The notes: generated by a model not told the origin, from the sequence alone. 64,000 nt of DNA from Syntrophales bacterium (GCA_049512055.1 JBEKXK010000004.1:5065-69064); one strand, 5' to 3'; positions 21,648-57,777 are shown, numbered from the stretch's first letter. A program made the numbers and translations.

Positions 21648-21789
21648 TCACCTCCTCGTCATATTCCGTGAGCTGACCCCATCTCCAGGGATAATCTCGG
21701 GTTAAGGATAGCCTCACCTCTGGAAAGCATGAAAAGCTTGCCGTGGCGATTGCGGGATTGCCCGTTTCCCGTATTTTCATGGGGCATAC

Positions 21790-22263: not shown

Positions 22264-22276
22264 GGTTGCTCCGGGA

Positions 22277-23035: not shown

Positions 23036-23048
23036 ACGGTTCGCCCCA

Positions 23049-24000: not shown

Positions 24001-24001
24001 A

Positions 24002-36544: not shown

Positions 36545-37840
36545 ATGTACCTCCTTTATAACATTCTATTAGTCATGGCTGCCCTGCTCGCTTTCCCCTA
36601 CTATGCGATCAAAATGACGCTGACGGGAAAATACAGAAAGAGCATGGGGCCGAAGTTCGGGCTTGTCAGTCCCGCGATCTTTGCCGAGATGAAGGGCAGT
36701 CCCAGGATATGGATACATGCTGTTTCCGTAGGCGAGGTGATGGCTGCCGAACCAATCGTTGCTTCCTTAAGAACGCACTTCCCCGAGGCCTGCATTGTGC
36801 TTTCCACCAGCACGGAAACAGGCCAGGACATGGCCAGAAGAATTGTCACCGGAGCGACGTCCTTTATATACTACCCACTTGATATCCCATTTGTCGTGAG
36901 AAAGATTATCACGAAAGTGAGTCCTGATATCTTTATCCTGACAGAGACGGAACTCTGGCCCAATTTTATCAGAGTATGTAAAGAGCAGGGTGCGAAGATA
37001 ATCATGGTGAACGGTCGCATCTCTCAACGCTCTTATCAGAGATATGCCCTGACGAAGTTCTTCTGGAAAGACATCGTAAATTTGGTTGACGAAATGGGCG
37101 TGATTTCGGCCATGGACGCTGAGCGGCTGAAAGCCATTGGCATGGCACCAGCGAGGGTCCATGTAATGGGGAACGCAAAGTACGACAGCTTAGCAGCGAA
37201 GGCCTCCCCCCTTGTGCGGGAAGAGATGCACAGAAAGCTGAATTTGATCGAAATGGACAGGGTCTTAGTGGCGGGAAGCACGCATGACGGCGAAGAGAAA
37301 ATCGTCCTCAATGTTTACAGGCGTCTCCTTGAGAGATACCCTGATTTCAAATTGATTATCATCCCCCGGCATCCTGAAAGAGGTCATGCAGTCCTTTCCC
37401 TGCTTGAAGAAACCGGCTTTGATGATTGCATAACAATGACCGATATCGAAGGAGGCAGGCATCGAACCGGCGAACGCATCATCGTTATCGATGTCATCGG
37501 TGAACTCTTCAAAGTATACTCCCTCGCTTCTGTGGTCTTCTGCGGCGGTTCCCTTGTCCCGAAGGGCGGGCAGAACATCCTCGAACCTGCCGCATGGGGC
37601 AAGGTCATCTTTTATGGACCTTCCATGGATGACTTCCGGGATGAAAAGGAACTCCTGGAAAATGCCGGCGCGGGGATAATGGTGAGAAGCGGCGAAGAAT
37701 TACTCGAAGGTATCCTCACACTCATGTCTGATCCTGATACGCTTGCCAGGAAGGGAGAGGAGGGGAGGAGAATTGTAGTTTCTAATATGGGGGCCGCAGA
37801 TAGATATGCCGACATGGTGAGGTCACATATCAAAAAATAA
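36545..37840 (+). CDS. waaA: 3-deoxy-D-manno-octulosonic acid (Kdo) transferase
   Basis: N-terminal membrane anchor, IWIHAVSVGEV, ETELWPN and GGSLVPKGGQNILEPAA. Confidence 0.88.
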   Translation: MYLLYNILLVMAALLAFPYYAIKMTLTGKYRKSMGPKFGLVSPAIFAEMKGSPRIWIHAVSVGEVMAAEPIVASLRTHFPEACIVLSTSTETGQDMARRIVTGATSFIYYPLDIPFVVRKIITKVSPDIFILTETELWPNFIRVCKEQGAKIIMVNGRISQRSYQRYALTKFFWKDIVNLVDEMGVISAMDAERLKAIGMAPARVHVMGNAKYDSLAAKASPLVREEMHRKLNLIEMDRVLVAGSTHDGEEKIVLNVYRRLLERYPDFKLIIIPRHPERGHAVLSLLEETGFDDCITMTDIEGGRHRTGERIIVIDVIGELFKVYSLASVVFCGGSLVPKGGQNILEPAAWGKVIFYGPSMDDFRDEKELLENAGAGIMVRSGEELLEGILTLMSDPDTLARKGEEGRRIVVSNMGAADRYADMVRSHIKK

Positions 37841-40935: not shown

Positions 40936-40973
40936 AAAATAAAAAGGCCATGGATTTTTTGCCCATGGCCTTT
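40936..40973 (-). terminator. intrinsic terminator after the TMTC-like gene array
   Basis: 11-bp stem AAAGGCCATGG (40943-40953) / CCATGGCCTTT (40963-40973). On the minus strand it is followed by TTTTTATTTT. Confidence 0.7.
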
Positions 40974-41192
40974 AGGATGATATAAACGTACTCTTATCCT
41001 TTCCTAAAAACGACGGGCGACGCGGGGAGCCGCGTCAACAGAAGAGCGAGGAGAAGCAAGCGACGAGCACACAAATCAAAAATCTCTCTTCTTATTGATA
41101 CAAATGTCATTGTCAGGAAATCCCGTCTAAGGTCTGGAGATAATATAGAATAAATGACAGCCGGTGTCAATAGGCAAATCATACCCCAATAC

Positions 41193-42920
41193 TCACCTGA
41201 ATCTCTTCTGCGCAGCCAGAGCGTTCTTAAGGTTTTCCTGCGCCAGTGCGTAACCTGGGTTGAGACGCAATGCCTCCCGATAACTGGCGATTGCCTCGTC
41301 AAGCCTTCCTTGATAGAGTAAGACGTTGCCCAGATTGTTGTAAGCCTTTGCATACCCCGGACTGATACGGATGCTTTCGCGAAACTGATAAATGGCTTCA
41401 TCGAGGTTCCCTTGTGAGGCCAGTATTGTTCCCAAATTATAGTGTGCATCAGCCGGATTGTTGATGCTGATAGCCGTCTGAAAGTGGACAATAGCTTCCC
41501 TTGTTTTGCCCTGGAGAGATAGGGCATAACCCAGGTTATTTTGCGCCCAAGCATTTTCCGATGTAACCTTTATGGCATGCTCATAGAGGATGATGTTATT
41601 GCGCCAAAAACCAATCTGGACATACGTCATAATCATACAGGCGAGAAGAATCCCCACAGCGGCAGTAGCAATGGCAAACCTTCTATAACGCCAGCGATTG
41701 AGAACTTCCGGAACGCCCCAGGCAATCATGATGAAAACACCGATGAGGGACACGTAGGTATAGCGGTCGGCCATAGACTGCAATCCCACCTGCACCAATC
41801 CAATGACCGGTATAAGAGTTCCCGAATACCAGAGCCAGCCGACTATAAGATAGGGAAAACGCCTGGCTCCTCGAATAGTAAGGTAGGTTGTAACCAATAG
41901 AACCAACATGGCCGATACTGCCTGCCATGAGAGGAGCGCAATACCTACATACGGATAAAAGATGGAGAGCTTTACAGGCCAGAGCATCTTTCCAATATAG
42001 CTGACATAAGAAATCAGTGCATTGGCAATGCGGCCGCTAAGGGGATACAGCTCCATGGGTTTCACTACCAACTGCTGGGCATAGAAGGTCACGAAGCAGA
42101 AGAGTATGGTGATAATAAAAAATGGTATCTTTTCTTTCAGCAACGGTCGTATCTCCGGCCACAGGGCACGGGATGACGTGGCACTCTTTGTCTTTACAGT
42201 CTCTTTTCCGGGTTCCTGCTGCGACTTCTGCTTTTTCTTCGCGCGGCTCGCCGGTTGGGGCGTTGCAGCAGCGATGCGGGCGCCCGATTTTGCCAAGTTG
42301 AGCCGCTTGAGGGGCCAGTAATCCAGGAGCAGAAGGACAAAGGGCAAGGTGACCAGCATGGGCTTGGACATGAGACCCAATACGAAGAATACGAAGACCA
42401 AGAGATACCTCTTATATCCGGGACGCTCCACATAGTAGACATAAGCCCCCATGGTGAGCATCCAGAATAACGTGGAGAGGACATCCTTCCGTTCAGCCAC
42501 CCAGGCGACAGACTCCACATGGAGGGGATGCAACGCGAAAAGCCCTGCCACAAAGGCACTCTGCCAGAGATCCGTCGTCATGCGGCGTAGAATTAGGAAG
42601 AGCAGGAGGGTGTTGGCTACATGAAAGAAGAGGTTGACCAGATGATGCCGCCCCGGCTTCAGTCCGAACAGCTGACAGTCCAGCATGTGTGAAAGCCATG
42701 TCAGCGGGTGCCAATTATGGGCATGCGGCTCGGAAAATGCCCAGACTATGCCTTTTGAAGTAATCCCATCCTTTACATAATGGTTCTCTGTTACATAGTC
42801 GTTATCATCAAATGATATGAACTCGTGGTTGCCGACCTGCCAGAAGACCGCAATTGTTATTATCGCCAGTGCAGTACAAATTGCCAATACTGAATAGTTG
42901 CTATTTATCTTACTTATCAT
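41193..42920 (-). CDS. TMTC-like GT-C membrane glycosyltransferase with C-terminal TPR domain (paralogue 1)
   Basis: 575 aa with many hydrophobic segments. First-loop acidic motif FISFDDNDY, DUF1736-like HPLHVESVAWVAERKDVLS, and C-terminal TPRs (AHYNLGTILASQGNLDEAI...). Confidence 0.75.
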   Translation of the reverse strand: MISKINSNYSVLAICTALAIITIAVFWQVGNHEFISFDDNDYVTENHYVKDGITSKGIVWAFSEPHAHNWHPLTWLSHMLDCQLFGLKPGRHHLVNLFFHVANTLLLFLILRRMTTDLWQSAFVAGLFALHPLHVESVAWVAERKDVLSTLFWMLTMGAYVYYVERPGYKRYLLVFVFFVLGLMSKPMLVTLPFVLLLLDYWPLKRLNLAKSGARIAAATPQPASRAKKKQKSQQEPGKETVKTKSATSSRALWPEIRPLLKEKIPFFIITILFCFVTFYAQQLVVKPMELYPLSGRIANALISYVSYIGKMLWPVKLSIFYPYVGIALLSWQAVSAMLVLLVTTYLTIRGARRFPYLIVGWLWYSGTLIPVIGLVQVGLQSMADRYTYVSLIGVFIMIAWGVPEVLNRWRYRRFAIATAAVGILLACMIMTYVQIGFWRNNIILYEHAIKVTSENAWAQNNLGYALSLQGKTREAIVHFQTAISINNPADAHYNLGTILASQGNLDEAIYQFRESIRISPGYAKAYNNLGNVLLYQGRLDEAIASYREALRLNPGYALAQENLKNALAAQKRFR

Positions 42921-42942
42921 CCGTCAGCCGTAATGAGATTAA

Positions 42943-44865
42943 TTATTTCTTATTATGCATTGCAAGGGCATTTTTCAGGTTGTCGCTGGCCTGCTTGAAG
43001 TCAGGGTTAATTCGCAGGGCTGCACGGTAACTGTTGATGGCTCCGTCAATCTCGCCCCGCGAAAGCAAGGCGCTTCCCAGATTGTTATGGGCATCTGCCA
43101 AATCAGGCTTGAGTCTGATGGCCTCCCGAAAGTGGGTGATAGCTTCGTCTTCTTTACCGAGGAGGGCCAAGACATAACCGAGGTTATTCTGATATTCTGC
43201 AACGCGAGGTCTGATTCTTACAGCCTCCTTGAGGTGGGTCACAGCTTCCACCATTTTCCCCTGGTGCGCCAAAGCATTACCCAGGTTATAATGTCCATCG
43301 GCGTGGTATGGATTGATCCTCAAGGTTTCCTCATAGTCGGCGATAGCCCCCCCGTAATCACCGAGCTTGGCCTTTGCGTTTCCACGATTTTCGTAAGCTA
43401 TAAAAAAGCGAGGGTTGATCTCAATTGCTCTATTGTAATACCTTAAAGCCTCAGATGCATTCCCTGCATCGGCGATTGCCTTCCCGTAAGCATTCAACGG
43501 TCTCGGTTTATTAGGAGATTTCCTCAGACAGTCGGCCCACAGGGTATATTCACTCTTCCAGACCCTATTGCGCTCATAGGTCAATACTGCGTTTGTCAAG
43601 ATAAGTAAAACCAGCGCTCCTACCGATACCTGCCTGTATCGATCCCATATAAAATAAAAGACCACGCCTGTCAGTACAAGAAAGAAACCAATACTTGGCA
43701 GGTACGTCCGATGTTCAAATATAACATTCTGGGAAATCGGGATGATACTTGATTCTACGGAGAGTGTTAAGAAAAACCAGAATATACCAAAGGAAATCAG
43801 CCGATACCTGCGGAAAAGGAATATTGCCGCGACAAATATTCCGACCAGGGATAACAGGCCAAAAAGCGTATGCCCTTCAAAAAGGCTGTGGGAGATCGGA
43901 CAGTCATAATCCAGATTCTGATTTACAGGCAGAATGAATAGCCTGATATATGTTAGTATGACGCTGAACTGCGTGAGGAGATATTCCCGTGCCGTTATGA
44001 GAGAATCATAACCCTGGTTGAGAAGGGGGGGCACGGGAGTAAATATCCCGAAAGAGAAATTAAGGAAAAAAAGGGCAACGAAAATCACGAGGATAATGAC
44101 AGGAATCTGGATGCCCCTGTCTCTTAAATCGATCTTCCACGTATCGGTTTTTATAAAACTGAACTCGTACAAAACAAGGGCAAAGGGTAACGTAAAGACG
44201 ATCTCCTTGGTCAGCATCCCCAATATAGCGCACAGTACAGAGCCTGCGTAATAAAAGTAAACCCGTGTATCTTTATTACCTTCCCGAACTCTGCCCTTGA
44301 CAAACAGCGCTAATGATAACAGATAAAACAGCGTGGCCAATGAAGCCAGCCGTTGCACTATATACGTTACCGACTGCGTAGCCAGCGGATGCGATACGAA
44401 GAGCAGTGCGGTAAACAAAGCCATTGCTCCTTTATGCCTGCTTATCGGCTGAGCCTTCATTACAGGCGTCGCCATTGTCAGGATCACCAGCCACCATACC
44501 AATATGGCATTGACAACGTGTATCCCCAAATTAACGAGGTGGTATCCCCAGACATCGAGTTTGTGAAAATGATAATCCAGGGCAAATGATAGATTCCCTA
44601 TGGGACGGCTGGGGATAAAACCCCACCAGGCTTTCACATTGGAAAGATTCCGTATGGTGATATTTTCCTCAATGTTCGGTGTATCGTCAAAATGAAAAGA
44701 GCAATCAAACGAATTGGAATAAGCTATTACACCCACAAGGCATATAAGTATTATAGATATTAGGCTCCATGGGAACTTTCTATTTTTCCCCTGTTCTTTT
44801 TTGCCATCAGGGATTGGTTTTTGTTTTTTTTTCTTAGGGGTATTCAATTTCTGGATGCGTGCCAC
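42943..44865 (-). CDS. TMTC-like GT-C membrane glycosyltransferase with C-terminal TPR domain (paralogue 2, divergent)
   Basis: 640 aa with a GTG start after GGGAGATAAGG. Contains FHFDDTPNI and HPLATQSVTYIVQRLASLA, with six or more C-terminal TPRs. Confidence 0.72.
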   Translation of the reverse strand: MARIQKLNTPKKKKQKPIPDGKKEQGKNRKFPWSLISIILICLVGVIAYSNSFDCSFHFDDTPNIEENITIRNLSNVKAWWGFIPSRPIGNLSFALDYHFHKLDVWGYHLVNLGIHVVNAILVWWLVILTMATPVMKAQPISRHKGAMALFTALLFVSHPLATQSVTYIVQRLASLATLFYLLSLALFVKGRVREGNKDTRVYFYYAGSVLCAILGMLTKEIVFTLPFALVLYEFSFIKTDTWKIDLRDRGIQIPVIILVIFVALFFLNFSFGIFTPVPPLLNQGYDSLITAREYLLTQFSVILTYIRLFILPVNQNLDYDCPISHSLFEGHTLFGLLSLVGIFVAAIFLFRRYRLISFGIFWFFLTLSVESSIIPISQNVIFEHRTYLPSIGFFLVLTGVVFYFIWDRYRQVSVGALVLLILTNAVLTYERNRVWKSEYTLWADCLRKSPNKPRPLNAYGKAIADAGNASEALRYYNRAIEINPRFFIAYENRGNAKAKLGDYGGAIADYEETLRINPYHADGHYNLGNALAHQGKMVEAVTHLKEAVRIRPRVAEYQNNLGYVLALLGKEDEAITHFREAIRLKPDLADAHNNLGSALLSRGEIDGAINSYRAALRINPDFKQASDNLKNALAMHNKK

Positions 44866-44938
44866 ACCTTATCTCCCATGTTCTTCTTTCACAGTAGAGA
44901 GAGCATAAATAAATAAGATATGATTGAACGCGCAAAGC

Positions 44939-46768
44939 CTATCGGTTTCTTTTCTGTTGAGCAAGGGCATTCTTCAGATTCTCCCGCGCCATAGTATAAT
45001 CCGTCTTGAGACGCAGGGCCTGTCGATAACTGTCAATGGCTTCATCAATCTTTCCCCGAAAAAGCAAGGCGTTTCCCAGATTGTTATATGCCTTGGCATA
45101 GTCCGGTTTGATGCGAACGCATTCCCGAAATTGATAGATAGCTTCATCGAGCTTCCGCTGTGATGCCAGAAGAGTACCGAGGTTGTAGTGTGCTGCTGCA
45201 TGGCTGGGATTGATTCCAATGGCCTTGAAGAAATTGGGTATGGCTTCATCTGGCCTTCCCAGCTTGGTCAAGGCAAGACCTATATTATTATATGCATCTG
45301 CCAGACCCGGGTCAATCCGCAATGCTTCGGCATAGTGAGCGATGGCTTCATCAAGCCTGCCCTGATCCTCCAGGGCGTTGCCGAGGTTATTTTGCATTAT
45401 GGGATTATTAGTTGTCACTTCCACTGCATGCGTAAAGAGAACAACGCTGTCCTTCCAGTATTTCACCTGCTTCCAGGTAACGAACGAAAAAGTGGTTAGT
45501 GTGATGACAGCTACCGTTGCAAGTGCAGCATTCCGATGTCGCCACTTTTTTGAAAGCTCAGGTACACCCCAGGCAACCATAATCGAAACGCCTACAAGGG
45601 GCACATAGGTATAGCGGTCCGCCATGGCCTGGACACCCACCTGGACGAGGCCGATCACCGGAACCATTGTCCCCAAGTACCACAGCCATCCTGTCGCAAG
45701 ATAGGGGTAGCGCTTCACGTTCCGGATAATCAAAAAGGTTGTAATGCCAAGAAAGAAGACCGCAGCAACAACCTCCCAGGTTGGCAACATGCCGTGGTAC
45801 GGATAAAGAACCGCAAGATCAGCGGGCCAGATCATCTTCCCAATGTAACGGCAGTAAGAGACAAGGGCATTGGCAATGCGTGTTGACAGGGGAAAGCTTT
45901 GCAGAGAACGCATGGCCCCGCCTTCCTGCTGGGCCATGTATGTAACTATACTCGATGCCAGAGAAAGAACAAAAAATGGAACCTTTTCCAGGATAATGTG
46001 ACCGATAGCAGGCTGTTGCCGGTTCTGCTTCTCAGGCTTATTTACATACTCTGCTTTTATTGCACTCTTCCGGCGTTCCTTTTTTTTGCTGTTCCTTTTC
46101 AGGGGTCTTTCAGATCGCGTGTTCTCATTTACTAACGATTTCCCTATCGTCAACCGGCGGAGGGGCCAGTAATCAAGAAGGAGCAGGACAAAGGGAAGCG
46201 TAACCAGCATGGGTTTGGCCATGAGGCCCAGGGCAAAAAAGAAAAGAGCAAGCAGATACCTCTTTAGCCCCCGCCTTTCAACATAGAAAACATAAGCCCC
46301 CATGGTGAGCATCCAGAAGAATGTAGAAAGGACGTCCTTGCGCTCGGTAACCCAGGCAACAGACTCCACATGAAGGGGGTGAATGGCGAAGACAGCCGCC
46401 ACAAAGGCACTTTGCCAGAGGCCCTTCGTCATGCGGTGAAGAATGAGAAAGAGCAAGAGTGTATTGGCGATGTGAAAGAAGAGATTGACTAAATGATGAA
46501 AACCCGGCCTCAATCCGAACAACTGACAGTCCAGCATGTGAGAAAGCCAGGTCAGGGGGTGCCAGTTACTCACATAGAAGGTTGTAAAAGCCCATGCAAC
46601 GTTCCCGGATGTCAGACCCGTCTGTACGTGATGATTTTCCGTTATGTATTCGTTGTCATCGAAACCAACGAAGTCGTAATCCTTCACCTGCAAGAAAACG
46701 GACAGCATAACAACCGTTAGAAAGAGGCATATGAGTAATGCCTGCCGTTTGTCATCTAGTTTATTCAT
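44939..46768 (-). CDS. TMTC-like GT-C membrane glycosyltransferase with C-terminal TPR domain (paralogue 3)
   Basis: The start is trimmed to the ATG at 46768, which overlaps the hflX stop by 1 nt (TGATG). Contains FVGFDDNEY and HPLHVESVAWVTERKDVLS. It shares long identical blocks with paralogue 1. Confidence 0.75.
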   Translation of the reverse strand: MNKLDDKRQALLICLFLTVVMLSVFLQVKDYDFVGFDDNEYITENHHVQTGLTSGNVAWAFTTFYVSNWHPLTWLSHMLDCQLFGLRPGFHHLVNLFFHIANTLLLFLILHRMTKGLWQSAFVAAVFAIHPLHVESVAWVTERKDVLSTFFWMLTMGAYVFYVERRGLKRYLLALFFFALGLMAKPMLVTLPFVLLLLDYWPLRRLTIGKSLVNENTRSERPLKRNSKKKERRKSAIKAEYVNKPEKQNRQQPAIGHIILEKVPFFVLSLASSIVTYMAQQEGGAMRSLQSFPLSTRIANALVSYCRYIGKMIWPADLAVLYPYHGMLPTWEVVAAVFFLGITTFLIIRNVKRYPYLATGWLWYLGTMVPVIGLVQVGVQAMADRYTYVPLVGVSIMVAWGVPELSKKWRHRNAALATVAVITLTTFSFVTWKQVKYWKDSVVLFTHAVEVTTNNPIMQNNLGNALEDQGRLDEAIAHYAEALRIDPGLADAYNNIGLALTKLGRPDEAIPNFFKAIGINPSHAAAHYNLGTLLASQRKLDEAIYQFRECVRIKPDYAKAYNNLGNALLFRGKIDEAIDSYRQALRLKTDYTMARENLKNALAQQKRNR

Positions 46769-48495
46769 CACGAGGGAAACGACCTTGATTCGATAGGATT
46801 CATTCTCGTCCGGGTCTGATTGATCATCGCTTCCATCCTTTCCGCAAGAGGAGGCAGGGTTTCGGGATTGAGGGCTGAGATGGCTGTGGCGCAAAACCTC
46901 TGACAGAGGTTTTGCAGGATCACTTTATCGGAGAAGCGATCTGCCTTATTGAAGACACGGAGAGTGGGCTTTCCGATTATTGCAAGCTCCTCCAGGATTT
47001 TCTCAACTGCCGCCATATGGCTTTCAAAATTCGGATTACTTATGTCAACTACATGGAGAAGGACATCGGCTTCGTGGAGTTCATCAAGGGTCGCCCGAAA
47101 GGCAGCAAAGAGATCCCGGGGAAGATCCCGGATAAATCCTACCGTATCGGTGATGATCGCTTCCGTATCCCGCGGAAAGCGGAGCCGCGAACTCTTGGGA
47201 TCAAGGGTCGCAAACAGGCGGTCCTCCGTAAAGACACTGCTTTTTGTGAGCGTATTCAGGAGGGTTGATTTTCCGGCATTCGTGTAGCCGACGATGGAGA
47301 TTATGGGAAGACCCATTTTCCCCCGTTTAACGCGGCGTTGTTGCCTTGCCCTTTCGATCTCGTGCAGTTCACGTTCGAGGCGGCGGATTCGATCCCTCAC
47401 ACGGCGGCGGTTTATCTCAAGCTTAGTCTCCCCCGGCCCCCTGCCTCCGATGCCTCCCGTGAGCCTCGACATGGCCGTATTTTTTGTCGCCAGCCTGGGG
47501 AGGAGATACTTTAACTGTGCCAGCTCCACCTGGAGCTTGCCCTCTCGGCTATGGGCGCGCCGGGCGAAGATATCAAGAATGATCTGGGTGCGGTCGACGA
47601 CCTTCATCTCCGTAAAATCCGTAATGGATCTCAGCTGTGCCGGTTGCAGTTCATGGTCGAAGATGAGGAGATTGGCTCCTATCTGCATGGCCCTGATGAC
47701 GAGCTCCGACATTCTCCCCCTGCCGAGGACAAATCGAGGGTCTATCTGATCCCGATACTGGATGATGCTGTCGAAAACCTCAACCCCGCAGGATCGGGCG
47801 AGCTCCTTCAGTTCATCTAAGGAGCTTCGGCTGTCGGCAAGGGGACGCGTTTCCACACGGATCAGTATGGCGCGGTCTGCAGAATCCACCTTGCGAGTTT
47901 TCTGTTTTTTTGTAAATTCGCTCTCCAGGGCCTGGATGAAGGCAAGAAAATTGAGGTGCATCTCCGACGGACGCACCTTCTCCATAATAAGCCAGAACCT
48001 GCCATCAGGGTTTTCCGGAATCAGGTGGGCAGTGTGGGCATAACCGGGAAGGCCATCCTCTCCCGTCTCAACGGCTGAGATGAGATCGAGGCGGAGAAGG
48101 GCCAGGTCGGTGAGGTCGTCAGTGGTGAGTCCTTCACCGTTTAAATGGGTGTGGATTAAGCGGAGGCCCTTGAAGCGTATGGAAGAAGAACGGAAGCCGT
48201 CAAGGCCGGGAATCATGATGTCCTTGGGCGAGCCGGCAATGACGTAGGCGATCTCGCCTCTGCGGCTGATCAAGATTCCTATCTGACGGTTGATTTCCCG
48301 TGAAATGGATGTGAGTTGTCTCGCCAGTTCGTGGGTAATGACGCGTTCCGGCGGTACCTTCCTCCGGTAGAGTTGACCGATCCTCCTTATCTGTTCTGCG
48401 CCCAGGCCGGTCAGGCTGCCATAGACTTTATTGATTTCCTGCCCCCTTGCTTTCGGCCTGACGCGAGGCCATCCTCCTCGCCAGACGTTCCTCAT
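46768..48495 (-). CDS. hflX: GTPase HflX (long form with N-terminal extension)
   Basis: HflX N-domain (LQVELAQLKYLLPRL) and G motifs GYTNAGKSTLLN, DTVGF and NKAD. About 190 extra N-terminal residues. The exact start is uncertain because it overlaps the zinc-ribbon gene by 68 nt. Confidence 0.88.
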   Translation of the reverse strand: MRNVWRGGWPRVRPKARGQEINKVYGSLTGLGAEQIRRIGQLYRRKVPPERVITHELARQLTSISREINRQIGILISRRGEIAYVIAGSPKDIMIPGLDGFRSSSIRFKGLRLIHTHLNGEGLTTDDLTDLALLRLDLISAVETGEDGLPGYAHTAHLIPENPDGRFWLIMEKVRPSEMHLNFLAFIQALESEFTKKQKTRKVDSADRAILIRVETRPLADSRSSLDELKELARSCGVEVFDSIIQYRDQIDPRFVLGRGRMSELVIRAMQIGANLLIFDHELQPAQLRSITDFTEMKVVDRTQIILDIFARRAHSREGKLQVELAQLKYLLPRLATKNTAMSRLTGGIGGRGPGETKLEINRRRVRDRIRRLERELHEIERARQQRRVKRGKMGLPIISIVGYTNAGKSTLLNTLTKSSVFTEDRLFATLDPKSSRLRFPRDTEAIITDTVGFIRDLPRDLFAAFRATLDELHEADVLLHVVDISNPNFESHMAAVEKILEELAIIGKPTLRVFNKADRFSDKVILQNLCQRFCATAISALNPETLPPLAERMEAMINQTRTRMNPIESRSFPS

Positions 48496-48726: not shown

Positions 48727-48760
48727 AAAAAACCCCGGAGGGACATCCCCCCGGGGTTTT
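48727..48760 (-). terminator. intrinsic terminator after the porin gene
   Basis: GC-rich hairpin CCCCGGAGGG-ACAT-CCCCCCGGGG (48733-48756), flanked by an A6 run on the plus strand and therefore a T6 run on the minus strand. Confidence 0.75.
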
Positions 48761-48785: not shown

Positions 48786-50150
48786 TTAGAAGGTGAGGGT
48801 CAGTTTTTGAGTTATGAGATAGTCGTTGTCGATAGAGTATGATGAAACGGAGCCCTTCCAGTAGTCACCCGCCCACAGGTAGCCAAAGCCGACCATGTAG
48901 GTGAGGTTGTCATAGATCTTGTAGGTTGCCGTCACGTCAAGCTCACTACCGTAGTTATGGGAAATCTGATTCGCAACTGCGTCCTTGTCCGCAGTGGCAA
49001 TGGCGTAGGCCGCCTTGATATCCAGCTTTGGTAGAGGCTTCACACCAACAAAAATCTGTGCAAATTGGGCATTGGTAATGCCTGCAATCACAGACGTAGG
49101 AAGAGGCCCCATACCACCATTCCACCTGGACAAGTCAAAGTTCCAGAGCATCAGGCAGGGGTTAAAATCGGTCATTCCGGGCCATCCTGAGTTGTCTTTA
49201 TCAGTTGCATTAATATCGGTACCCTCTACGTAGACCAGGTTGATACCGGCATACATGGGTGCGAAATCAACGGTGGCCGAGATATAGGCACTAAGTCCGT
49301 CCTTAGTCTGATCTGTGCCGTTGCTGGCCGTGTCATACTTTTTTGTTTTACCTGTTAGGTAAAACGCTTCACCCTCGATATAGACAGGACCTATCTGGGC
49401 CTTAAAGTAGGGGTCAAAGATCTCCCACAGTCTCTTGTAGCCCGCATCTGTCGCAGGGTTCGGGCTAGTCCCGGCATTTCTGCTATCGACGAGGTGTTTA
49501 TAGAGCAAACCGGCATTCCCCTTGCCCCAGTCGTAGATAAAGGCCAGGACGTACGCATCCTGCTGGTTATCCACCTGGTAGAGGGAGTTGCCTATGTTGC
49601 CGGCAGGACCGGCAGAGCTATAGTACTGAGTGGCTTCTGTCTTGTCATAGAGAGCGATAAGTGTCCATGGACCGATAACGTAATCGTACCTGACCCTGGG
49701 GCCATAGGCGTAGTCGCCGTAGTCACCGAATGTGGTGCCGAACTGACCTTGCCGCTGGTAACCGGCTCTGAAGAGGCCTCCAAAGAGATTAGCGCTCACA
49801 TACACCTGGTTGAAATGGATATTTTCATCTTCATCATTATTCGGTAAGTTGAAGATGTTAGAGACATTCGCGGGGGTAACTGTAGAACTCCTTGAAGCGC
49901 CCCATATCTTATCCATAATGTCGGCCTGGACCGTCAGCGACAGGCCTTCCTGGACCTTGAAGTCTGTCTGCAGCCTCAGTCTCTGCCATGTATTCATCAG
50001 GGACGCTCCCTGATCCACCAGAGCACGGTTGTTTTCATAGTAACCCTGGATGACGTAAGACCCGCTGAACTTCACATCCGTCGCACATACGGGCATTGTG
50101 AAGGCCATGATCAGGGCAACTGATAGTAAAACTATCCAAAGCTTCTTCAT
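48786..50150 (-). CDS. outer-membrane beta-barrel porin-like protein
   Basis: Signal peptide MKKLWIVLLSVALIMAFTMPVCA, alternating Tyr/Gly-rich amphipathic strands and a C-terminal ...LTLTF. The start is trimmed to the ATG at 50150 after AGGAGGAAACA. Confidence 0.65.
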   Translation of the reverse strand: MKKLWIVLLSVALIMAFTMPVCATDVKFSGSYVIQGYYENNRALVDQGASLMNTWQRLRLQTDFKVQEGLSLTVQADIMDKIWGASRSSTVTPANVSNIFNLPNNDEDENIHFNQVYVSANLFGGLFRAGYQRQGQFGTTFGDYGDYAYGPRVRYDYVIGPWTLIALYDKTEATQYYSSAGPAGNIGNSLYQVDNQQDAYVLAFIYDWGKGNAGLLYKHLVDSRNAGTSPNPATDAGYKRLWEIFDPYFKAQIGPVYIEGEAFYLTGKTKKYDTASNGTDQTKDGLSAYISATVDFAPMYAGINLVYVEGTDINATDKDNSGWPGMTDFNPCLMLWNFDLSRWNGGMGPLPTSVIAGITNAQFAQIFVGVKPLPKLDIKAAYAIATADKDAVANQISHNYGSELDVTATYKIYDNLTYMVGFGYLWAGDYWKGSVSSYSIDNDYLITQKLTLTF

Positions 50151-50748
50151 TGTTTCCTCCTGTTTTCGTTTTTTAAATTGATCTTTCCGGGCATGTTCCT
50201 GAAAGACCATTCTCATTAGAACCACTTTTAAAACTTCGGCCTCCAGAATTACCTAAAGGCCGCTTAAACCCCTTCTTCACCTCCTTTCATAGAGATTTAC
50301 GGCGAAAATATGTACCACCGTCAATATTCGTTGTCAAGCCTTTTTCGCCGCTGTTTTACAAAAGGGCCTCGCAAAGAGCCGCCCTTCTTTTTGCTTATTC
50401 GACCAGCAATAACCGTACCACGGCTGTGCATCAGGAATACCATAAAAGAATGGGCAACGGTAACATATTGTAAATAAGGGAGCTAATGCCTGATAATGAT
50501 TGCTGGCGAAGAAAAAAAATAAGGCACCTACAATAGCCCTAAAAATCAACAATGAATATCATTGCACACGGAAATAATCCTGGAGACACGAGGCTAAGCT
50601 GAGGGGTAATCTTACAATATTGTCTCCTATCAAATACTTACAGGATTTATGAATTCACTAGAACCGATAAATGGGAAATCTTTCAAACCGTAACATACGC
50701 TCCACATGTGTAGCAAAAAAAACACACTCAAGCAGGCAGCGGGATTTT

Positions 50749-51729
50749 TTACAACAGGGATTGATGATCTTTTACCATATCTGTATCCATTTTAATGTTG
50801 CGCCCCTGCGTTGTCAGATAGTTGCCGATCATCAGGCCATTTGCACCAGCGAGCATGGCCCATGATTGATAATCTCTGAGAGTCACTTCTCTCCCACCGC
50901 AGATGAGAATATTCTTGTCAGGATTGACGAATCTGAAAACGGCTATGCACTTCAATGCCTCCAAGGGCTTGAGCAAGGGTCTCTTTTCCATTCCGGTGCC
51001 CGCAATGGGATTGAGAAAATTTATCGGTATACCGTCAACGTCGAGTTCCTTCAGAGTAAAGGCTAATTCCGCGCGCTGCTCCCAGGTTTCACCCAGTCCC
51101 AAAATGCCTCCTGAACAAACCTTCATCCCTGCCGCCTTGGCAAGCTTAACTGTAATGATGTCCTCTTCGTAGTCATGGGTCGTGCATACCTTATCGAAGA
51201 AACTCCGTGCTGTTTCCAGATTATGATGGTAAACGACAATCCCCCCTTCCGCGAGCCTGCGTGCTTTGGCCTCATTGAGCATTCCCAGGGAGGCGCAGAG
51301 AGTGAGGTCCGTCTTTCCGGCAATGGCAGCCGCGCTACGGCAGATGATGTCCAGTTCCTCGTCTGTCAGCATATAGCCGCTTGTTACCATGGAATATCTT
51401 GTGGCCCCTCCCCTCTCTAACTCAATTGCGCTTTTCACAATTTCCTCTTCATCCAATAAGGGATACGTCATGATCTCCGTTTTATGATGGGACGATTGGG
51501 CGCAGAAAGCGCAATCTTCGGAGCAAAAACCCGATTTGGCATTGATGATGGAACACAGAATAGTTTCTTTTACCTCTCGCATCTTTTTGATCTTGTGAGC
51601 ACAGAATAGTAAGTCCATGGTATCCTTTTCCGGAAGATGAACAAGTTCACAGGCATCTTCGTAAGAAACGGCATCACCGCCATCGTTTATAATTTTTTCA
51701 GTGAGCTCGATAATTTTCTTATTGAACAT
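50749..51729 (-). CDS. bioB: biotin synthase
   Basis: Radical-SAM CSEDCAFCAQS plus biotin synthase C-terminal motifs. The start is trimmed to MFNKKIIELTEK (ATG at 51729). Confidence 0.93.
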   Translation of the reverse strand: MFNKKIIELTEKIINDGGDAVSYEDACELVHLPEKDTMDLLFCAHKIKKMREVKETILCSIINAKSGFCSEDCAFCAQSSHHKTEIMTYPLLDEEEIVKSAIELERGGATRYSMVTSGYMLTDEELDIICRSAAAIAGKTDLTLCASLGMLNEAKARRLAEGGIVVYHHNLETARSFFDKVCTTHDYEEDIITVKLAKAAGMKVCSGGILGLGETWEQRAELAFTLKELDVDGIPINFLNPIAGTGMEKRPLLKPLEALKCIAVFRFVNPDKNILICGGREVTLRDYQSWAMLAGANGLMIGNYLTTQGRNIKMDTDMVKDHQSLL

Positions 51730-51827
51730 ATTCTTCTCCTTTTTTGCGGGATGTCCATTTCTCGGGAAATAATCTGCCTCTTGGCGGTAAGAAAGAGTAT
51801 TTGCCCATATCAGAGGGCGGAACATAA

Positions 51828-51855
51828 GTCAACCTTATTTATATTTTGGGTTGAC
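51828..51855. promoter_or_regulatory. BirA operator (bioO) in the bioB / birA-bioA divergent region
   Basis: Perfect inverted repeat GTCAACC (51828-51834), a 14-nt AT-rich spacer, and GGTTGAC (51849-51855). This matches the TGTWAACC-N14/15-GGTTWACA class of BirA sites. Each half-site overlaps an outward-facing TTGAC(A/T) hexamer. Confidence 0.7.
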
Positions 51856-51885
51856 AATCAATTACGAGGATGTTATGAGCCGCGC

Positions 51886-52872
51886 ATGTCCACAAAGCAG
51901 CAGTTACTCATATATTTGAAAGATGGTAGGGGAACCTGGGTCTCCGGCGAATTCCTCGCCCATAAAATGGCGGTTTCCCGGTCGGCTGTATGGAAACATA
52001 TCGGCACTTTAAAGGAAGATGGTTATGTGATCGAATCGTCGCGAAAAAAAGGGTATCTCCTTCGCCAGACATCCGATTTACTTCTTGCAGATGAAATCCG
52101 AGAAGGGCTGAACACGAATGTTTTCGGTAAGGGACAGATTATTTATTTCAGGGAAACGGACTCAACTAATGTGAGGGCTAAGTATCTGGCAGGCGACGGC
52201 GCTCCTGAGGGAACGGTGGTTGTTGCGGAGAAGCAGACACAGGGACGAGGAAGAAGGGGAAGAAGCTGGTTTTCTCCCCCTGGTGAGGGCATCTACACCT
52301 CTATCATCCTAAGGCCACCCATTCCTCCAAATGAGGCGCCTAAGCTGACTTTATTGGCATCGGTGGCGGTAGCTGAGGCTTTGCTTTCTCTTACATCATT
52401 AAAGGTCAACATTAAATGGCCCAACGACATACTGATCAAAGGCAGGAAGGTCGCAGGCATTCTCACGGAAATCAGCACGGAAATGGACAGAATCGATTAT
52501 GTGGTCATAGGTGTTGGTGTAAATGTGAATACGCCGCGAAAAGGCCTTCCTCCTGATGTCGCACACACGGCAACATCTGTTTTCATGGAGGCAGGCAGGG
52601 CATTCCCCAGGATCGCCCTCCTTCGCGCCTATCTGGAGTGGCTCGAAATATATTACGAAACATTCAAGACGAAGGGTTTTGATCCAATATTGAATCGGTG
52701 GAAGCATCTTGCTGACATAATCGGGAGGCGGATAAGTGTTGACCTCATGGGCAGTGTACGCATGGGTAAGGTCTTGGATGTAGACAAAGACGGTTCTCTG
52801 ATCCTCCAGGATCGCAAGGGGACGATTGAGAGGATAATTTCCGGGGACGTAACTTTGTTATCTCAGGAGTAG
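51886..52872 (+). CDS. birA: bifunctional biotin-protein ligase / biotin operon repressor
   Basis: N-terminal winged HTH (GEFLAHKMAVSRSAVWKHIGTLKEDGYVI) and a ligase core (QTQGRGRRGRSW; KWPNDI). The start is trimmed to the ATG at 51886. Confidence 0.9.
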   Translation: MSTKQQLLIYLKDGRGTWVSGEFLAHKMAVSRSAVWKHIGTLKEDGYVIESSRKKGYLLRQTSDLLLADEIREGLNTNVFGKGQIIYFRETDSTNVRAKYLAGDGAPEGTVVVAEKQTQGRGRRGRSWFSPPGEGIYTSIILRPPIPPNEAPKLTLLASVAVAEALLSLTSLKVNIKWPNDILIKGRKVAGILTEISTEMDRIDYVVIGVGVNVNTPRKGLPPDVAHTATSVFMEAGRAFPRIALLRAYLEWLEIYYETFKTKGFDPILNRWKHLADIIGRRISVDLMGSVRMGKVLDVDKDGSLILQDRKGTIERIISGDVTLLSQE

Positions 52873-52996
52873 AGAATTGTGCAGATTTCACGTCTCTAAG
52901 ACCAACTGCCTTTCAACCCCGCTGCTGTTTCGACCGGAGGAACTGTAACATAATTGGCGTGACGCAGCAGAATTGAACGAGTGAGGTTTAGATATC

Positions 52997-54364
52997 ATGA
53001 CCGGCAAAGACAGAAAAGAACTGGAGATCGCTGATAAAAAGTATATTTGGCATCCCTTTACCCAGATGCGGGGTTATGAAAAGGAAACGCCGCTCATCAT
53101 TGAGGAAGCGGAAGGGTGCCTGTTAAGAGATATGGAGGGTAACAGTTATATTGATGGTGTTTCTTCACTCTGGACCAATGTTCACGGCCACAGGAAGAAG
53201 AGACTTGACGATGCCCTGAAAGAGCAGCTTGGCAAGATTGCCCACTCGACCCTGCTGGGACTTTCCAATACACCGGCAATCAGACTGGCGAAGAAATTAA
53301 TCGCAATTGCCCCGGCGGGATTGACGAAGGTATTTTATTCCGACAATGGTTCCACAGCCAATGAAATAGCGCTTAAGATGGCCTTCCAGTACCATCAGCA
53401 ATGCCCTTCGGGAAAGCACAGCAAGAAGAAATTCATTCGCCTGTCCAATGCCTATCATGGAGATACGATAGGCTCCGTGAGTGTGGGAGGGATTGATCTG
53501 TTCCATTCCATGTACAGGGACCTGCTCTTCCCGTCTTTCAAGGCGGAAGCACCCTACTGTTACCGCTGCGCATTCGGAAAGTCCCATCCCGCCTGCGGGC
53601 TCGCATGCCTGGCGCACGTGGAGGACATCATGAAGGCCCATAACCATGAGATTGCCGCGCTCATGATAGAGCCCTTGGTCCAGGGAGCCGGCGGGATATT
53701 GGTGCAGCCACCAGGATACCTGAAAAGGGTAAGAGAATTATGCACGCGCTACAACATCTTCATGATCGCCGATGAGGTGGCGGTCGGCTTCGGCAAGACG
53801 GGAAAAATGTTTGCCTGTGAACATGAAGGGGTGGTGCCGGACATCATGGCCCTGGCAAAGGGAATAACGGGAGGGTATCTCCCGCTTGCAGCAACCCTCG
53901 TGACGGAGGAAATCTATGAAGGATTTCTCGGGGAGTTCGAGGAGTTCAAAACATTCTTTCATGGACACACTTTTACGGGAAACCCCCTGGCATGCGCGGT
54001 TGCCATCGCCAACCTTAAGGTCTTCGAAGAGGAGCGCACCCTCGACAAACTCAAAGCAAAAATTGCGCACCTCGCAGAGAGGCTAAAACCATTTGCCTCT
54101 CTCAGTCACGTCGGAGAGGTGCGCCAGTGCGGCATCATGGTGGGTATAGAGCTCGTTTACAATCGAAATACAAAGCAGCCCTTTCCCCCGGAGAAGAGAA
54201 CAGGTCATCGGGTCATTATGGAGGCAAGAAAGAGAGGCGTGATTATCCGCCCTTTAGGGGATGTCATTGTACTGATGCCGCCCTTGAGCATTTCTAAAAA
54301 GGAAATAGATCTTCTCTGTCAGACTGTCTACGATTCGATTCAAATCGTCACAGAAAGAAAGTGA
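52997..54364 (+). CDS. bioA: adenosylmethionine-8-amino-7-oxononanoate aminotransferase
   Basis: 455 aa class-III aminotransferase with [25 protein letters not shown] and the PLP lysine context [12 protein letters not shown]. Confidence 0.93.
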
Positions 54365-54373
54365 GGTCTCGAA

Positions 54374-54700
54374 ATGGCCGGTGATGAAGAAGCATCAGAG
54401 AGAAGCCCCGGCAATGGCCCCTGGGAGGGCGTATTTTATTTTCATCCGGATGACGGCATTTACCAGGATCATTTCCCCGGGTACCCGGTTGTCCCCGGAA
54501 GCCTGATAGTGCGTGCATTTTTGGAAGCGGCAACAGACGCCGGCTTCTTGCCGGATTATCTTGCAATAGAAAACTTCAGGTTCAGAGAATTTCTCTCACC
54601 CGGCCATTACGCATTTCGTATCGAACTGGCGGAGGACCGGCTGAAATGCCAGATTTATCGGGGAGAGAAGAAACTCGTTACGGGAGTCTTGAAAAGATGA
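54374..54700 (+). CDS. short FabZ/FabA-like hotdog-fold dehydratase homologue
   Basis: 108 aa. DHFPGYPVVPGSLIVRAFLEAA matches the FabZ HFPxxPVxPG...EAxAQ catalytic region, with the His and Glu positions retained. It lacks the usual N-terminal strand. Confidence 0.65.
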   Translation: MAGDEEASERSPGNGPWEGVFYFHPDDGIYQDHFPGYPVVPGSLIVRAFLEAATDAGFLPDYLAIENFRFREFLSPGHYAFRIELAEDRLKCQIYRGEKKLVTGVLKR

Positions 54701-55440
54701 GCCGCCATTTTTCGGGAAATCGTGCCCTCGTTCTGGGTGGCACGTGCGAGCTTGCTCTTGCTTTGGCTCACTCCATGATAGGGTCTGATCTTTTTCCCAT
54801 TCTTACTTACAGAGACGATAAGGGTCTAAACGCAATAAGAGAGTCTCTGCGGCCCTTTCACGGGAGATACGAGACTTGCTATCTGAATTTCGGTGATCAT
54901 GCTTCGCTGGATTCCATCTTCACCCAAATCGGCGATGACCTCCATTTCCTGGTAGATTTTGCCCAGGGAAATTATGAGAGTTTTGTCGCCGGAGCAGACG
55001 AGGACAGCGTTTACAATTATTTCATGGAAAACATTTCTTTTCGCGCCGCTATTCTGAAAAGGGCTGGAAGGGCGATGCTGAAGAAAAGAAGGGGGCGACT
55101 CGTTTTTATTTCTTCTGCAGCCGCGGCAAGACCCAATCCCGGCCAGGGATTTTATGCAGCCGCCAAGCTGGCTTCGGAGGCCCTCTATCGCAACATGGGA
55201 TTGGAGTTGGGAGAACGTGGTGTGACTACGGTGATTCTTCGTCCCGGTTATATCGAGGCCGGGCGGGGCAGAATTTATCTGCAAGGGCAGGATCGAAAAA
55301 TTCTTGAGATGGTGCCGATAAGAAGGGCTATTACAGGCGAAGAAATTTCCCAGACGATTCTCTTCCTTCTTTCCGACGGCGCCTCCGCCATCAACGCGAC
55401 GGAGATCTCCATGGACGGAGGTCTCACATCCGGAAAATAA
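54697..55440 (+). CDS. short-chain dehydrogenase/reductase (FabG-like ketoreductase homologue)
   Basis: Rossmann N-terminus ALVLGGTCELALAL, FISSAAA and the YAAAK (YxxxK) catalytic motif. ATGA overlap with the preceding gene. Confidence 0.8.
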   Translation: MSRHFSGNRALVLGGTCELALALAHSMIGSDLFPILTYRDDKGLNAIRESLRPFHGRYETCYLNFGDHASLDSIFTQIGDDLHFLVDFAQGNYESFVAGADEDSVYNYFMENISFRAAILKRAGRAMLKKRRGRLVFISSAAAARPNPGQGFYAAAKLASEALYRNMGLELGERGVTTVILRPGYIEAGRGRIYLQGQDRKILEMVPIRRAITGEEISQTILFLLSDGASAINATEISMDGGLTSGK

Positions 55441-55508
55441 GAGGCCGTCAAACTCTCAAGCGAAATGGAAGAAAGGTCTTGAGTAGCACAGCCGAAAGTG
55501 TAGGACAC

Positions 55509-55880
55509 ATGGATGTTTTTGCTGAATTAAAAAAAATACTGGCAGAACTACTGGACATCGAAGACAGAGAAATTACGCCGGAGACTCTTCTCATCCAGGA
55601 TTTGGGTGCTGAGTCCATTGACCTTCTGGAGCTCGCCGTAACCGTAAACAGCCGGTTTAAGATAGCCGTGAGGGATGATGAGATATTCCTGACACGCTTC
55701 AGACTCTATTCTACAGAAGCGAAGCAGGAGGGAAAGGACACCGTCCACTATATTGCCGGAAAATATCCCTTTCTTGGCGAAGACAGGATAGCAGAAATAA
55801 TGGCGCATATTAAAGAAGGTCCTCAGTTGAAGATAAAAGACCTTATCAGTTATGTGGCATACCGGTCACAGGGGGTTTAA
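55509..55880 (+). CDS. acyl carrier protein-like protein with C-terminal extension
   Basis: DLGAESIDLLEL resembles the ACP DLGxDSLD phosphopantetheine site. It has about 45 residues beyond a normal ACP. An alternative TTG start lies at 55479. Confidence 0.75.
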   Translation: MDVFAELKKILAELLDIEDREITPETLLIQDLGAESIDLLELAVTVNSRFKIAVRDDEIFLTRFRLYSTEAKQEGKDTVHYIAGKYPFLGEDRIAEIMAHIKEGPQLKIKDLISYVAYRSQGV

Positions 55881-55884
55881 CGCC

Positions 55885-56523
55885 TTGGACATAACGCCTC
55901 TGGATAAACTGATCAATCAGCGGAGGAGCATCAGGAAGTACAAACGCGAATGCCCTCCCGAAGAATGGGTAAGAAAGATGATCCTGGCAGCCATGAGGGC
56001 GCCTTCTCCCTCAAACAGCCAACCCGTGCGGTTTATCCGCATCCTGTCTCCTGAGCTTAAGGACCATCTGCTTCAGGCCATGCGCGAAGGTGAAGAACGT
56101 TTGCTGGAGGCAGTTAAGAATGCGAGCAGTTCAAAAAGATTGAGAAACTGGATTAATGCCTATCGCCGGTTCTCGGAGTTCATGTTCGATGCGCCGGTAC
56201 TTCTTGCCGTCAGCACCACTACGACATTTCTCAATCTCGCAGAAAGGCTGTTCCGCGCCAGCGCGATGGAACAAGGACAGAAGAAACACCGGGACATTGA
56301 CATTGCCGTTGGTCTGGCTCTTAAGGGATATCTCCTGAAGGGGGAGGAGCTTGGCCTCGGTTCTTGTATTCTCACAGCCCCCCTGCTCTTTATCCAGGAA
56401 CCCGAGGGAATACTTGGCTTGAAAGGGATGGAGATCAAATGCTTTGTTACAACAGGGTATCCCGATGAAGAACCGGCTTATATCAAGCAAAAAGATATCA
56501 CAGAAATCTTCAGGGAAATTTAG
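55885..56523 (+). CDS. nitroreductase-family flavoprotein
   Basis: RRSIRKYK and APSPSNSQPVRF are FMN-nitroreductase signatures. The proposed start is TTG at 55885 after AGGGGG; the ORF-track ATG at 55852 would overlap the ACP gene by 29 nt. Confidence 0.75.
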   Translation: MDITPLDKLINQRRSIRKYKRECPPEEWVRKMILAAMRAPSPSNSQPVRFIRILSPELKDHLLQAMREGEERLLEAVKNASSSKRLRNWINAYRRFSEFMFDAPVLLAVSTTTTFLNLAERLFRASAMEQGQKKHRDIDIAVGLALKGYLLKGEELGLGSCILTAPLLFIQEPEGILGLKGMEIKCFVTTGYPDEEPAYIKQKDITEIFREI

Positions 56524-57738: not shown

Positions 57739-57777
57739 GAGCATTCTTGTTCCTGTGCCCTAGCAGAAGGTTATTTT

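Follow-up and report, generated by a model that had tools for sequence, protein, structure and literature searches.

Three consecutive genes on the minus strand of a 64,000-nt stretch of DNA from a Syntrophales bacterium (GCA_049512055.1 JBEKXK010000004.1:5065-69064; hereafter the window, to whose whole length all positions refer) encode proteins homologous, as judged from sequence, to the TMTC protein O-mannosyltransferases of eukaryotes (CAZy GT105). We favor, as a reasonably probable reading, that these proteins, P1, P2 and P3, are paralogous inner-membrane GT-C glycosyltransferases that would work in the periplasm, use polyprenyl-phosphate sugar donors and probably act on acceptor proteins of the cell envelope. 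This proposal joins observed homology and residue conservation to a predicted orientation; sugar transfer itself we infer from the GT-C and TMTC families. The proteins fall into two types, the A-type represented by P1 and P3 and the B-type represented by P2:

41193-42920, minus strand: P1, putative TMTC-like GT-C glycosyltransferase, A-type; open reading frame (ORF) with an ATG start, 575 aa.
42943-44865, minus strand: P2, putative TMTC-like GT-C glycosyltransferase, B-type; ORF with a GTG start, 640 aa.
44939-46768, minus strand: P3, putative TMTC-like GT-C glycosyltransferase, A-type; ORF taken from an ATG, 609 aa.

The ORFs and their translations bear out a preliminary description of this DNA, which had reported three consecutive minus-strand genes of 575, 640 and about 609 aa. 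They are separated by gaps of 73 and 22 nt. The GTG start of P2 is preceded by a ribosome-binding site, GGGAGA, and is supported because the orthologues of P2 measure 639-642 aa. The mechanically called ORF of P3 reaches a TTG at 46894; P3 orthologues measure 604-610 aa, among them P0002 with 604 aa and 86% identity. A further minus-strand ORF at 40994-41554 (186 aa) lies in another frame and overlaps the 3' end of P1; Arg/Leu-rich and of low complexity, it is probably not a gene.

Pfam searches and AlphaFold2 models reveal in all three proteins the polytopic N-terminal domain and C-terminal tetratricopeptide repeats (TPRs) previously described. The acidic motifs reported for the first loop (FISFDDNDY, FHFDDTPNI and FVGFDDNEY) are all found, with the aspartate pair at residues 38-39 of P1, 60-61 of P2 and 37-38 of P3. 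The membrane domain of P3, with 11 transmembrane (TM) helices, occupies residues ~1-432 and carries the histidine-proline (HP) motif HPLHVESVAWVTERKDVLS at residues 130-148; the HP motif of P1 lies at residues 131-149 and is accompanied by K186 and R386, and P2 has HPLATQSV at 159 and TKE at 219-221. P1 and P3 do share the identical blocks NWHPLTWLSHMLDCQLFGL, HHLVNLFFH and KPMLVTLPFVLLLLDYWPL, none of which occurs in P2; the latter is divergent as described, with 25-27% identity to P1 and P3 in an alignment running through the membrane domain.

The lysine-rich loop ascribed to each protein is found in P1 (residues 202-253, with 13 Lys and Arg, disordered in the model) and in P3 (residues 201-256) but not in P2, whose Lys-rich disordered stretch is the N-terminal tail, residues 1-32. 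In an alignment of 21 membrane domains (12 A-type and 9 B-type; profile A3), such Lys/Arg-rich segments, predicted to be disordered and cytoplasmic, recur by subfamily, as the TM6-TM7 loop in the A-type and as the N-terminal tail in the B-type. Pfam TPR_1 marks three stretches in P1, five in P2 and four in P3. The models contain eight TPR helices in P1 and 12 in P2, corresponding to about four and six repeats, and P3 has about five, since it equals P1 plus one 34-aa repeat. The earlier count of five or more TPRs per protein therefore stands for P2, with its five TPR_1 stretches and 12 helices, and approximately for P3, but is too high for P1.

Profile comparisons support and strengthen the earlier suggestion that a GT-C membrane domain is joined to TPRs in the manner of TMTCs. 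Profile A3 was compared by hhalign with a TMTC profile of 12 sequences, comprising TMTC1-4 of human, zebrafish and fly, for which the alignment was taken from the supplement of PMC7801869. The two profiles align with a probability of 99.9% (E=1.2e-35) across 395 of ~430 columns, spanning essentially all eleven helices. The A-type profile alone yields 99.5% (E=1e-22) and the B-type profile alone 99.8% (E=1.3e-29), so that both subfamilies appear to be true TMTC homologues. By these comparisons, the B-type, and with it P2, is nearer to TMTC than the A-type, though it is invisible to Pfam.

Pfam PMT_2 (PF13231), a family of the GT-C clan with a gathering score of 26.1, is matched by P1 at 26.2-26.8 bits and by P3 at 28.3-29.0 bits over residues ~91-201, and by all 12 A-type relatives tested (best E=1.4e-7). 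None of the nine B-type proteins matches PMT_2, no Pfam family matches the membrane domain of P2, and Pfam PMT (PF02366) gave no match at permissive E-values. Neither PMT_2 nor hhalign places the membrane domain outside GT-C. The B-type membrane domain, found in P2, in its relatives P0121-P0240 and in thousands of further members, is without Pfam-A coverage, and its bearers are labelled only 'tetratricopeptide repeat protein', which constitutes a gap in family annotation.

One earlier assignment must be withdrawn. The motif HPLHVESVAWV[AT]ERKDVLS had been likened to the DUF1736 signature of TMTCs; instead, HPLHVESVAWVAERKDVLS aligns with HPIHTEAVAGIVGRADVLA of TMTC1, which comprises the end of TM3, loop EL2 and the start of TM4. 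DUF1736 corresponds to the TM7-TM8 loop of TMTCs, termed EL4 (PMC7801869). The HP motif is nonetheless a good marker of the family at TM3-EL2-TM4. Taken together, the profile and motif comparisons place P1-P3 in the GT-C clan through PMT_2, P2 joining by way of its hhalign link to TMTC, with most of the hallmarks of TMTC membership found and the DUF1736 signature lacking.

The predicted structures are in keeping with this assignment. AlphaFold2 models were computed from alignments of 94 sequences for P1 (predicted local distance difference test score, pLDDT, 84.5; predicted template modelling score, pTM, 0.84) and 90 sequences for P2 (pLDDT 89.4; pTM 0.87). Both models possess 11 TM helices; the first loop is long and contains short helices, the TM7-TM8 loop is likewise long and contains one amphipathic helix, and the TPR helices run on from TM11. 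The order of helices and the lengths of loops agree with the topology published for TMTC and ArnT (PMC7801869). The DD pair is situated in the loop after TM1, on the side poor in lysine and arginine. With helix boundaries read from the models, 18 Lys and Arg fall among the 68 loop residues on the N-terminal side of P1 and 21 among the 65 of P2, versus nine in 129 and eight in 142, respectively, on the opposite side. By the positive-inside rule, this bias would put the N-terminus and the Lys-rich segments in the cytoplasm and the DD loop, EL2, EL4, EL5 and the TPRs in the periplasm. The preliminary description had left the side of the TPRs to be checked; the modelled helices and the charge counts together predict 11 TM helices, a cytoplasmic N-terminus, and a DD loop and TPRs that both face the periplasm.

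Residues to which roles have been assigned in human TMTC1 (PMC7801869) were then mapped onto P1 and P2, giving the following correspondences:

TMTC1 D52/D53 (catalytic pair): D38/D39 in P1; D60/D61 in P2.
TMTC1 H89 (EL1): H66 in P1; segment deleted in P2.
TMTC1 R93/P94 (EL1): H71/P72 in P1; R87/P88 in P2.
TMTC1 H154/P155: H131/P132 in P1; H159/P160 in P2.
TMTC1 D169 (EL2): D146 in P1; A174 in P2.
TMTC1 K219 (EL3): K186 in P1; K220 in P2.
TMTC1 D330/W331 (EL4): F321/Y322 in P1; D321/C322 in P2 (family consensus D-Y).
TMTC1 R404 (before TM10): R386 in P1; H385 in P2, with R386 adjoining, one position off.

The DD pair is invariant in the 94- and 90-sequence alignments. P1 and P3 retain the ligand residues H66, D146, K186 and R386 (P1 numbering), and both lack the EL4 aspartate, as the A-type does; P2 retains the ligand residues only in part, with K220 kept and the arginine shifted by one position. 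Invariant across both subfamilies, whose overall identity to each other is 22-27%, are DD, HP, the EL2 arginine, the EL3 lysine together with TLP, and the EL4 tyrosine and proline.

On the reading we favor, the sugar would come from undecaprenyl-phosphate-hexose or a similar polyprenyl-phosphate carrier after its flipping to the periplasmic face. There, the phosphate of the donor, the hydroxyl of the acceptor and a metal ion would be positioned by the DD loop together with the EL5 arginine and the basic residues of EL1 and EL3; the sugar would then be passed to the acceptor, which the TPR domain would bind. That acceptor would most likely be a Ser or Thr of a periplasmic, outer-membrane or secreted protein, and the three paralogues would serve different acceptor sets, as TMTC1-4 do. 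Protein acceptors seem likely on indirect grounds, in that the TMTCs and TfpW act on proteins and TPRs usually bind proteins. TfpW of Pseudomonas aeruginosa is a GT-C enzyme, the D-arabinofuranosyl transferase of group IV pilins, and glycosylates pilin (bioRxiv 10.1101/2020.04.19.049825).

The array belongs to one of the largest families of bacterial membrane proteins, present in at least eight phyla. With sequences clustered at 50% identity, the membrane-domain profile detects 120,974 cluster representatives at E<=1e-3, of which 44,160 also pass E<=1e-30. Word-index searches returned at least 8000 relatives of P3 and at least 6091 of P2 at E<=1e-5, and the nearest relatives among the matches listed come from Syntrophales metagenome-assembled genomes, with identities of up to 86-92%. 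Some homologues sourced from JGI are named 'protein O-mannosyl-transferase' and others 'Tfp pilus assembly protein PilF'; NCBI names are simply 'tetratricopeptide repeat protein'. At least 586 stretches of species-representative genomes were matched, and the best 79 of these loci derive from Desulfobacterota, Planctomycetota, Verrucomicrobiota, Acidobacteriota, Ignavibacteria/Chlorobi, Gemmatimonadota, Armatimonadota and Hydrogenedentota.

Among 81 loci compared, to which several genomes contribute more than one, 36 carry two or more copies within +-8 kb, and up to seven stand in a row (locus L055); a tandem array is thus the usual condition in this family and no peculiarity of the window. Obligatory pairing of A-type with B-type genes was considered and rejected, as only five of the 36 multi-copy loci are mixed. 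Nor does the array stem from a recent duplication of copies 1 and 3, as had been supposed. P1 and P3 share only 55% identity over their full length and 57% over the membrane domain, and each gene is far closer to its positional counterpart in related Syntrophales genomes: in two related genomes whose arrays were compared over the membrane domain, the first gene shares 87% and 76% identity with P3, the middle gene or genes 83% and 80% with P2, and the last gene 85% and 84% with P1. Because positional orthologues are closer than paralogues, the A-B-A array is older than the split of these lineages. Recent duplication was seen only in locus L001, where two tandem B-type copies, 93% identical in the membrane domain, differ in length (7717-9918, 733 aa, and 10001-11917, 638 aa); their sequences point to a recent duplication accompanied by an altered number of TPRs.

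In some related arrays, GT2 genes of the ArnC/GtrB type and methyltransferase genes lie among the TMTC-like genes, a match of any such kind being found in nine of the 81 loci. ArnC/GtrB-like GT2 genes adjoin the arrays of L021 and L032, and the L021 protein, a match to Pfam GT2, shares 31% identity with Escherichia coli ArnC across 308 aa (E=2e-45). As gene content, such interleaved arrays fit a system of donor synthase plus GT-C enzyme. In L021 (1-17365, Smithellaceae chromosome OY820932.1) five TMTC-like genes lie within 17 kb, interspersed with the ArnC/GtrB-like GT2 gene (872-1846), a methyltransferase-GT2 fusion (9970-11406) and two methyltransferase genes; the locus also encodes a 518-aa protein without a Pfam match. 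L021 offers a better basis than the window for guessing the donor chemistry, which may possibly involve methylated sugars.

Within the window, the array is bordered by the following features:

46768-48495, minus strand: hflX, upstream of P3 (Pfam GTP-bdg_N, GTP-bdg_M and MMR_HSR1).
46766-46770, minus strand: junction TGATG, joining the TGA stop of hflX to the ATG of P3 with a 1-base overlap.
48738-48752: terminator-like hairpin from a consensus scan, after the porin-like gene and upstream of hflX.
48786-50225, minus strand: porin-like ORF of 479 aa with a signal peptide, likely start MKKLWIVLL, ending in LTLTF like an outer-membrane beta-barrel.
40943-40973, minus strand: terminator-like hairpin with a 12-bp stem, six G-C pairs and a T-rich tail, a pattern match only, from a consensus scan.
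Downstream of P1: 2-oxoacid:ferredoxin oxidoreductase genes (gamma, alpha and beta subunits), followed by kdtA and rpe (Pfam).
36545-37840, opposite strand to the array: kdtA (Kdo transferase), 3.3 kb off.

The TGATG overlap suggests translational coupling and co-transcription of P3 with hflX. Together with the two terminator-like hairpins, of which that at 40943-40973 lies ~220 nt 3' of the P1 stop, it outlines a likely unit hflX-P3-P2-P1, so that P1-P3 are probably co-transcribed with hflX. The succession of a porin-like outer-membrane protein, hflX, the array, the oxidoreductase, kdtA and rpe is kept in L001, with four array copies, and in L002, with three. The porin-like ORF, for which no Pfam family was matched, is likewise kept upstream of hflX in L001 and L002 (60-64% identity) and in L029 (36%). 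Adjacency of hflX to the array was seen in the Syntrophales-like loci L001, L002, L029 and L064 and in none of the other 77 loci; a general link to hflX was accordingly rejected.

Farther off, the window contains a type IV pilus region (11940-24913), with pilM, pilN, pilO, pilP and the pilQ secretin at 11940-16649 on the plus strand, a TPR protein of 258 aa at 16731-17507, a PilY1-like protein of 1168 aa at 17784-21290 on the minus strand, several small ORFs at 21321-24018, among them one that combines a GspH domain with an N-methylation motif (minor pilins), and a DsbC-like thiol-disulfide isomerase at 24002-24913. On the other side of the array, a biotin-related cluster (50749-60051) begins with a bioB-like radical SAM/BATS gene (50749-51825, minus strand) and birA (51637-52872) and continues with a bioA-type aminotransferase, a FabA-like protein, a short-chain dehydrogenase/reductase, an acyl carrier protein, a nitroreductase, a ketoacyl-synthase, a bioF-type aminotransferase and bioD (AAA_26). 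The 411-aa birA ORF and the 5' end of bioB overlap, and BirA of relatives measures 328 aa, so that its true start is probably further downstream.

Several observations weigh against P1-P3 being envelope-protein glycosyltransferases of the TMTC kind. Searches of the window by tblastn found no ArnC/GtrB-like donor synthase, ArnT or ArnE, and a Pfam survey of it found neither flippase nor sugar-nucleotide genes; in the rest of the window the only glycan gene from that survey is kdtA. The immediate neighbours, hflX and the oxidoreductase, are housekeeping genes. Pfam DUF1736 (PF08409) matches neither the membrane domains of P1-P3 at E<=10 nor the 21 members at E<=1, and the EL4 loop is alignable in the comparison of A3 with the TMTC profile, yet DNPA is absent from it and DW is replaced. 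P2 lacks both the EL2 aspartate (A174) and the His/Lys segment of EL1. Searches of PDB sequences by phmmer and hmmsearch gave no meaningful match to the membrane domain, full-length searches matching TPRs only, and all 50 Foldseek matches listed for the full-length P1 and P2 models against the PDB are TPR proteins, among them OGT, designed consensus TPR (CTPR) proteins and APC/C. Because the Foldseek lists consist wholly of TPR proteins, they carry no information on the membrane fold. A comparison of A3 with E. coli ArnT by hhalign gave a probability of 0.3%, which is uninformative because that template is a single sequence without a profile. Finally, a TPR domain is no proof of a protein acceptor.

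A serious if unlikely alternative is that P1-P3 are active GT-C enzymes with a non-protein acceptor, such as lipid A or the lipopolysaccharide core, peptidoglycan, or a capsular polysaccharide or exopolysaccharide, their TPRs docking on envelope machinery and not on substrates. ArnT and the Gram-positive GT-C side-chain glycosyltransferases decorate non-protein acceptors, and relatives of P1-P3 abound in exopolysaccharide-rich phyla. ArnT is moreover the closest solved structure to the TMTC membrane domains in a published HHpred search (PMC7801869), glycans or lipids are substrates of many bacterial GT-C enzymes (PMC11127046, PMC8035078), and the Kdo transferase gene lies in the vicinity of the array. 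That gene is, however, on the opposite strand, past the oxidoreductase operon and a terminator-like site, and the hhalign comparison with E. coli ArnT is not significant. The TMTCs, the nearest sequence relatives of known function, act on proteins, as does TfpW, and TPRs are typical protein-binding modules. These considerations lead us to prefer protein acceptors. The PilY1-like protein and the porin had been mentioned as conceivable targets that nothing in the sequence links to the array, and our analysis concurs: no glycan or acceptor genes are linked to it, the pilus genes (11940-24018) are at least 17 kb off, and the porin-like gene belongs to a separate unit behind hflX and a terminator-like site, so that nothing ties either to the array.

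It is improbable that P1-P3 are TfpW-type pilin glycosyltransferases or oligosaccharyltransferases serving the type IV pilus system of the window. In favor of this idea, TfpW begins in the cytoplasm, is predicted to have 11 TM helices, depends on a DDx motif in its first periplasmic loop, carries a Tyr/Pro motif in loop 4 and ends in a TPR domain on the periplasmic side (bioRxiv 10.1101/2020.04.19.049825), an architecture that P1-P3 match, and the invariant Y-x6-P of their TM7-TM8 loop (Y308...P315 in P1) recalls the Y-x6-P-F-x7-P of TfpW. The window, furthermore, has pilMNOPQ, a PilY1-like protein and minor pilins, and 'Tfp pilus assembly protein PilF' is among the JGI names of homologues. 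Yet tfpW is located immediately downstream of pilA in all species examined (bioRxiv 10.1101/2020.04.19.049825), whereas the array stands between hflX and the oxidoreductase operon, at least 17 kb from the pilus genes and with no adjacent pilin gene, in a non-pilus synteny that recurs in L001 and L002. The JGI names of the PilF/TadD kind reflect TPR similarity only. Identity with PilF, PilW or TadD was itself rejected, since those are small (lipo)proteins consisting of TPRs only, whereas P1-P3 have an 11-TM domain of 440 residues, and since the NCBIfam PilW model, with its cut-off of 154 bits, scores 54-74 bits in the TPR region only. Least probable of all, in our estimation, is that P1-P3 are non-catalytic, membrane-anchored TPR scaffolds (PilF/TadD/BatC-like) built on a GT-C-derived anchor, as the plain TPR names at NCBI and the loss of the EL2 aspartate and EL1 histidine segment from P2, and of the EL4 aspartate from P1 and P3, might suggest. 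The profile is conserved with TMTCs over all 11 helices, and DD, HP, the EL2 arginine, the EL3 lysine with TLP, and the EL4 tyrosine and proline are invariant between such distant subfamilies; strict invariance at low overall identity is expected of an active site and not of an anchor, which disfavors a scaffold. The complementary losses around the active site, of the EL4 aspartate in the A-type and of the EL2 aspartate and EL1 histidine segment in the B-type, together with the A-B-A order in several Syntrophales genomes, also raise the highly improbable idea that A-type and B-type proteins might form an obligate hetero-oligomer in the manner of Pmt1-Pmt2, or attach sugars in succession to one envelope protein. 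As part of this idea, the Lys-rich cytoplasmic segments and the suggested translational coupling to HflX, a ribosome-associated GTPase, could point to some connection with translation or translocation.

We therefore return to P1-P3 as putative protein glycosyltransferases and to what is established for such proteins elsewhere. The preliminary description had called the substrates and donors of bacterial TMTC-like proteins uncharacterised, which is nearly right, save that one bacterial enzyme of this architecture, TfpW, has been characterised; TfpW excepted, no characterised bacterial TMTC-like member was found in the literature searched. Prokaryotic homologues of TMTCs have already been mentioned (PMC7801869), and the genes described here are ordinary members of a known, very large and poorly understood family. 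By itself, this locus adds little: the array is of the typical kind, its neighbours are housekeeping genes, and neither donor nor acceptor genes are linked to it in the window. Identification of the donors and acceptors of the family would open a large area of bacterial envelope glycosylation and inform the origin of the animal TMTC pathway.

With PMT_2, ArnT and PMT proteins, P1-P3 share the acidic first-loop motif, and the PMT_2 match of P1 and P3 extends over TM2-TM6. That match covers ~105-110 of the ~440 residues of the membrane domain, with scores just at threshold, and P2-type proteins go unmatched; P1-P3 also lack both the MIR domain of PMT proteins and the ArnT-type C-terminal domain. 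The likeness to TfpW is one of described architecture and motifs only. The gene for TfpW adjoins pilA, whereas the array of the window is flanked by hflX and the oxidoreductase gamma subunit, and no genes of the D-arabinofuranose pathway were seen in the window.

The closest comparison is with TMTC1-4, the dolichyl-phosphate-mannose:protein O-mannosyltransferases of cadherins and protocadherins. They differ from P1-P3 in the EL4 loop, which with its DUF1736 features, DNPA and DW, is divergent and undetected in P1-P3. The A-type proteins are distinguished from TMTCs by a Lys-rich, disordered cytoplasmic TM6-TM7 loop of 50 residues, and P1-P3 have only about 4-6 TPRs, human TMTCs having more. 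The donor lipid would likewise differ: TMTCs use dolichyl phosphate, and here a bacterial polyprenyl phosphate is expected because the proteins are bacterial. Against these differences stand a membrane domain homologous over its full length, the same predicted topology with the N-terminus inside and the C-terminal TPRs non-cytoplasmic, and a set of common motifs, namely DD in loop 1, RP in EL1, HP.H.E.V....R.D.L at TM3-EL2-TM4, K(E)..T in EL3 and [DE]R..Y before TM10. Like the TMTCs, finally, the bacterial family is represented by several paralogues per genome.

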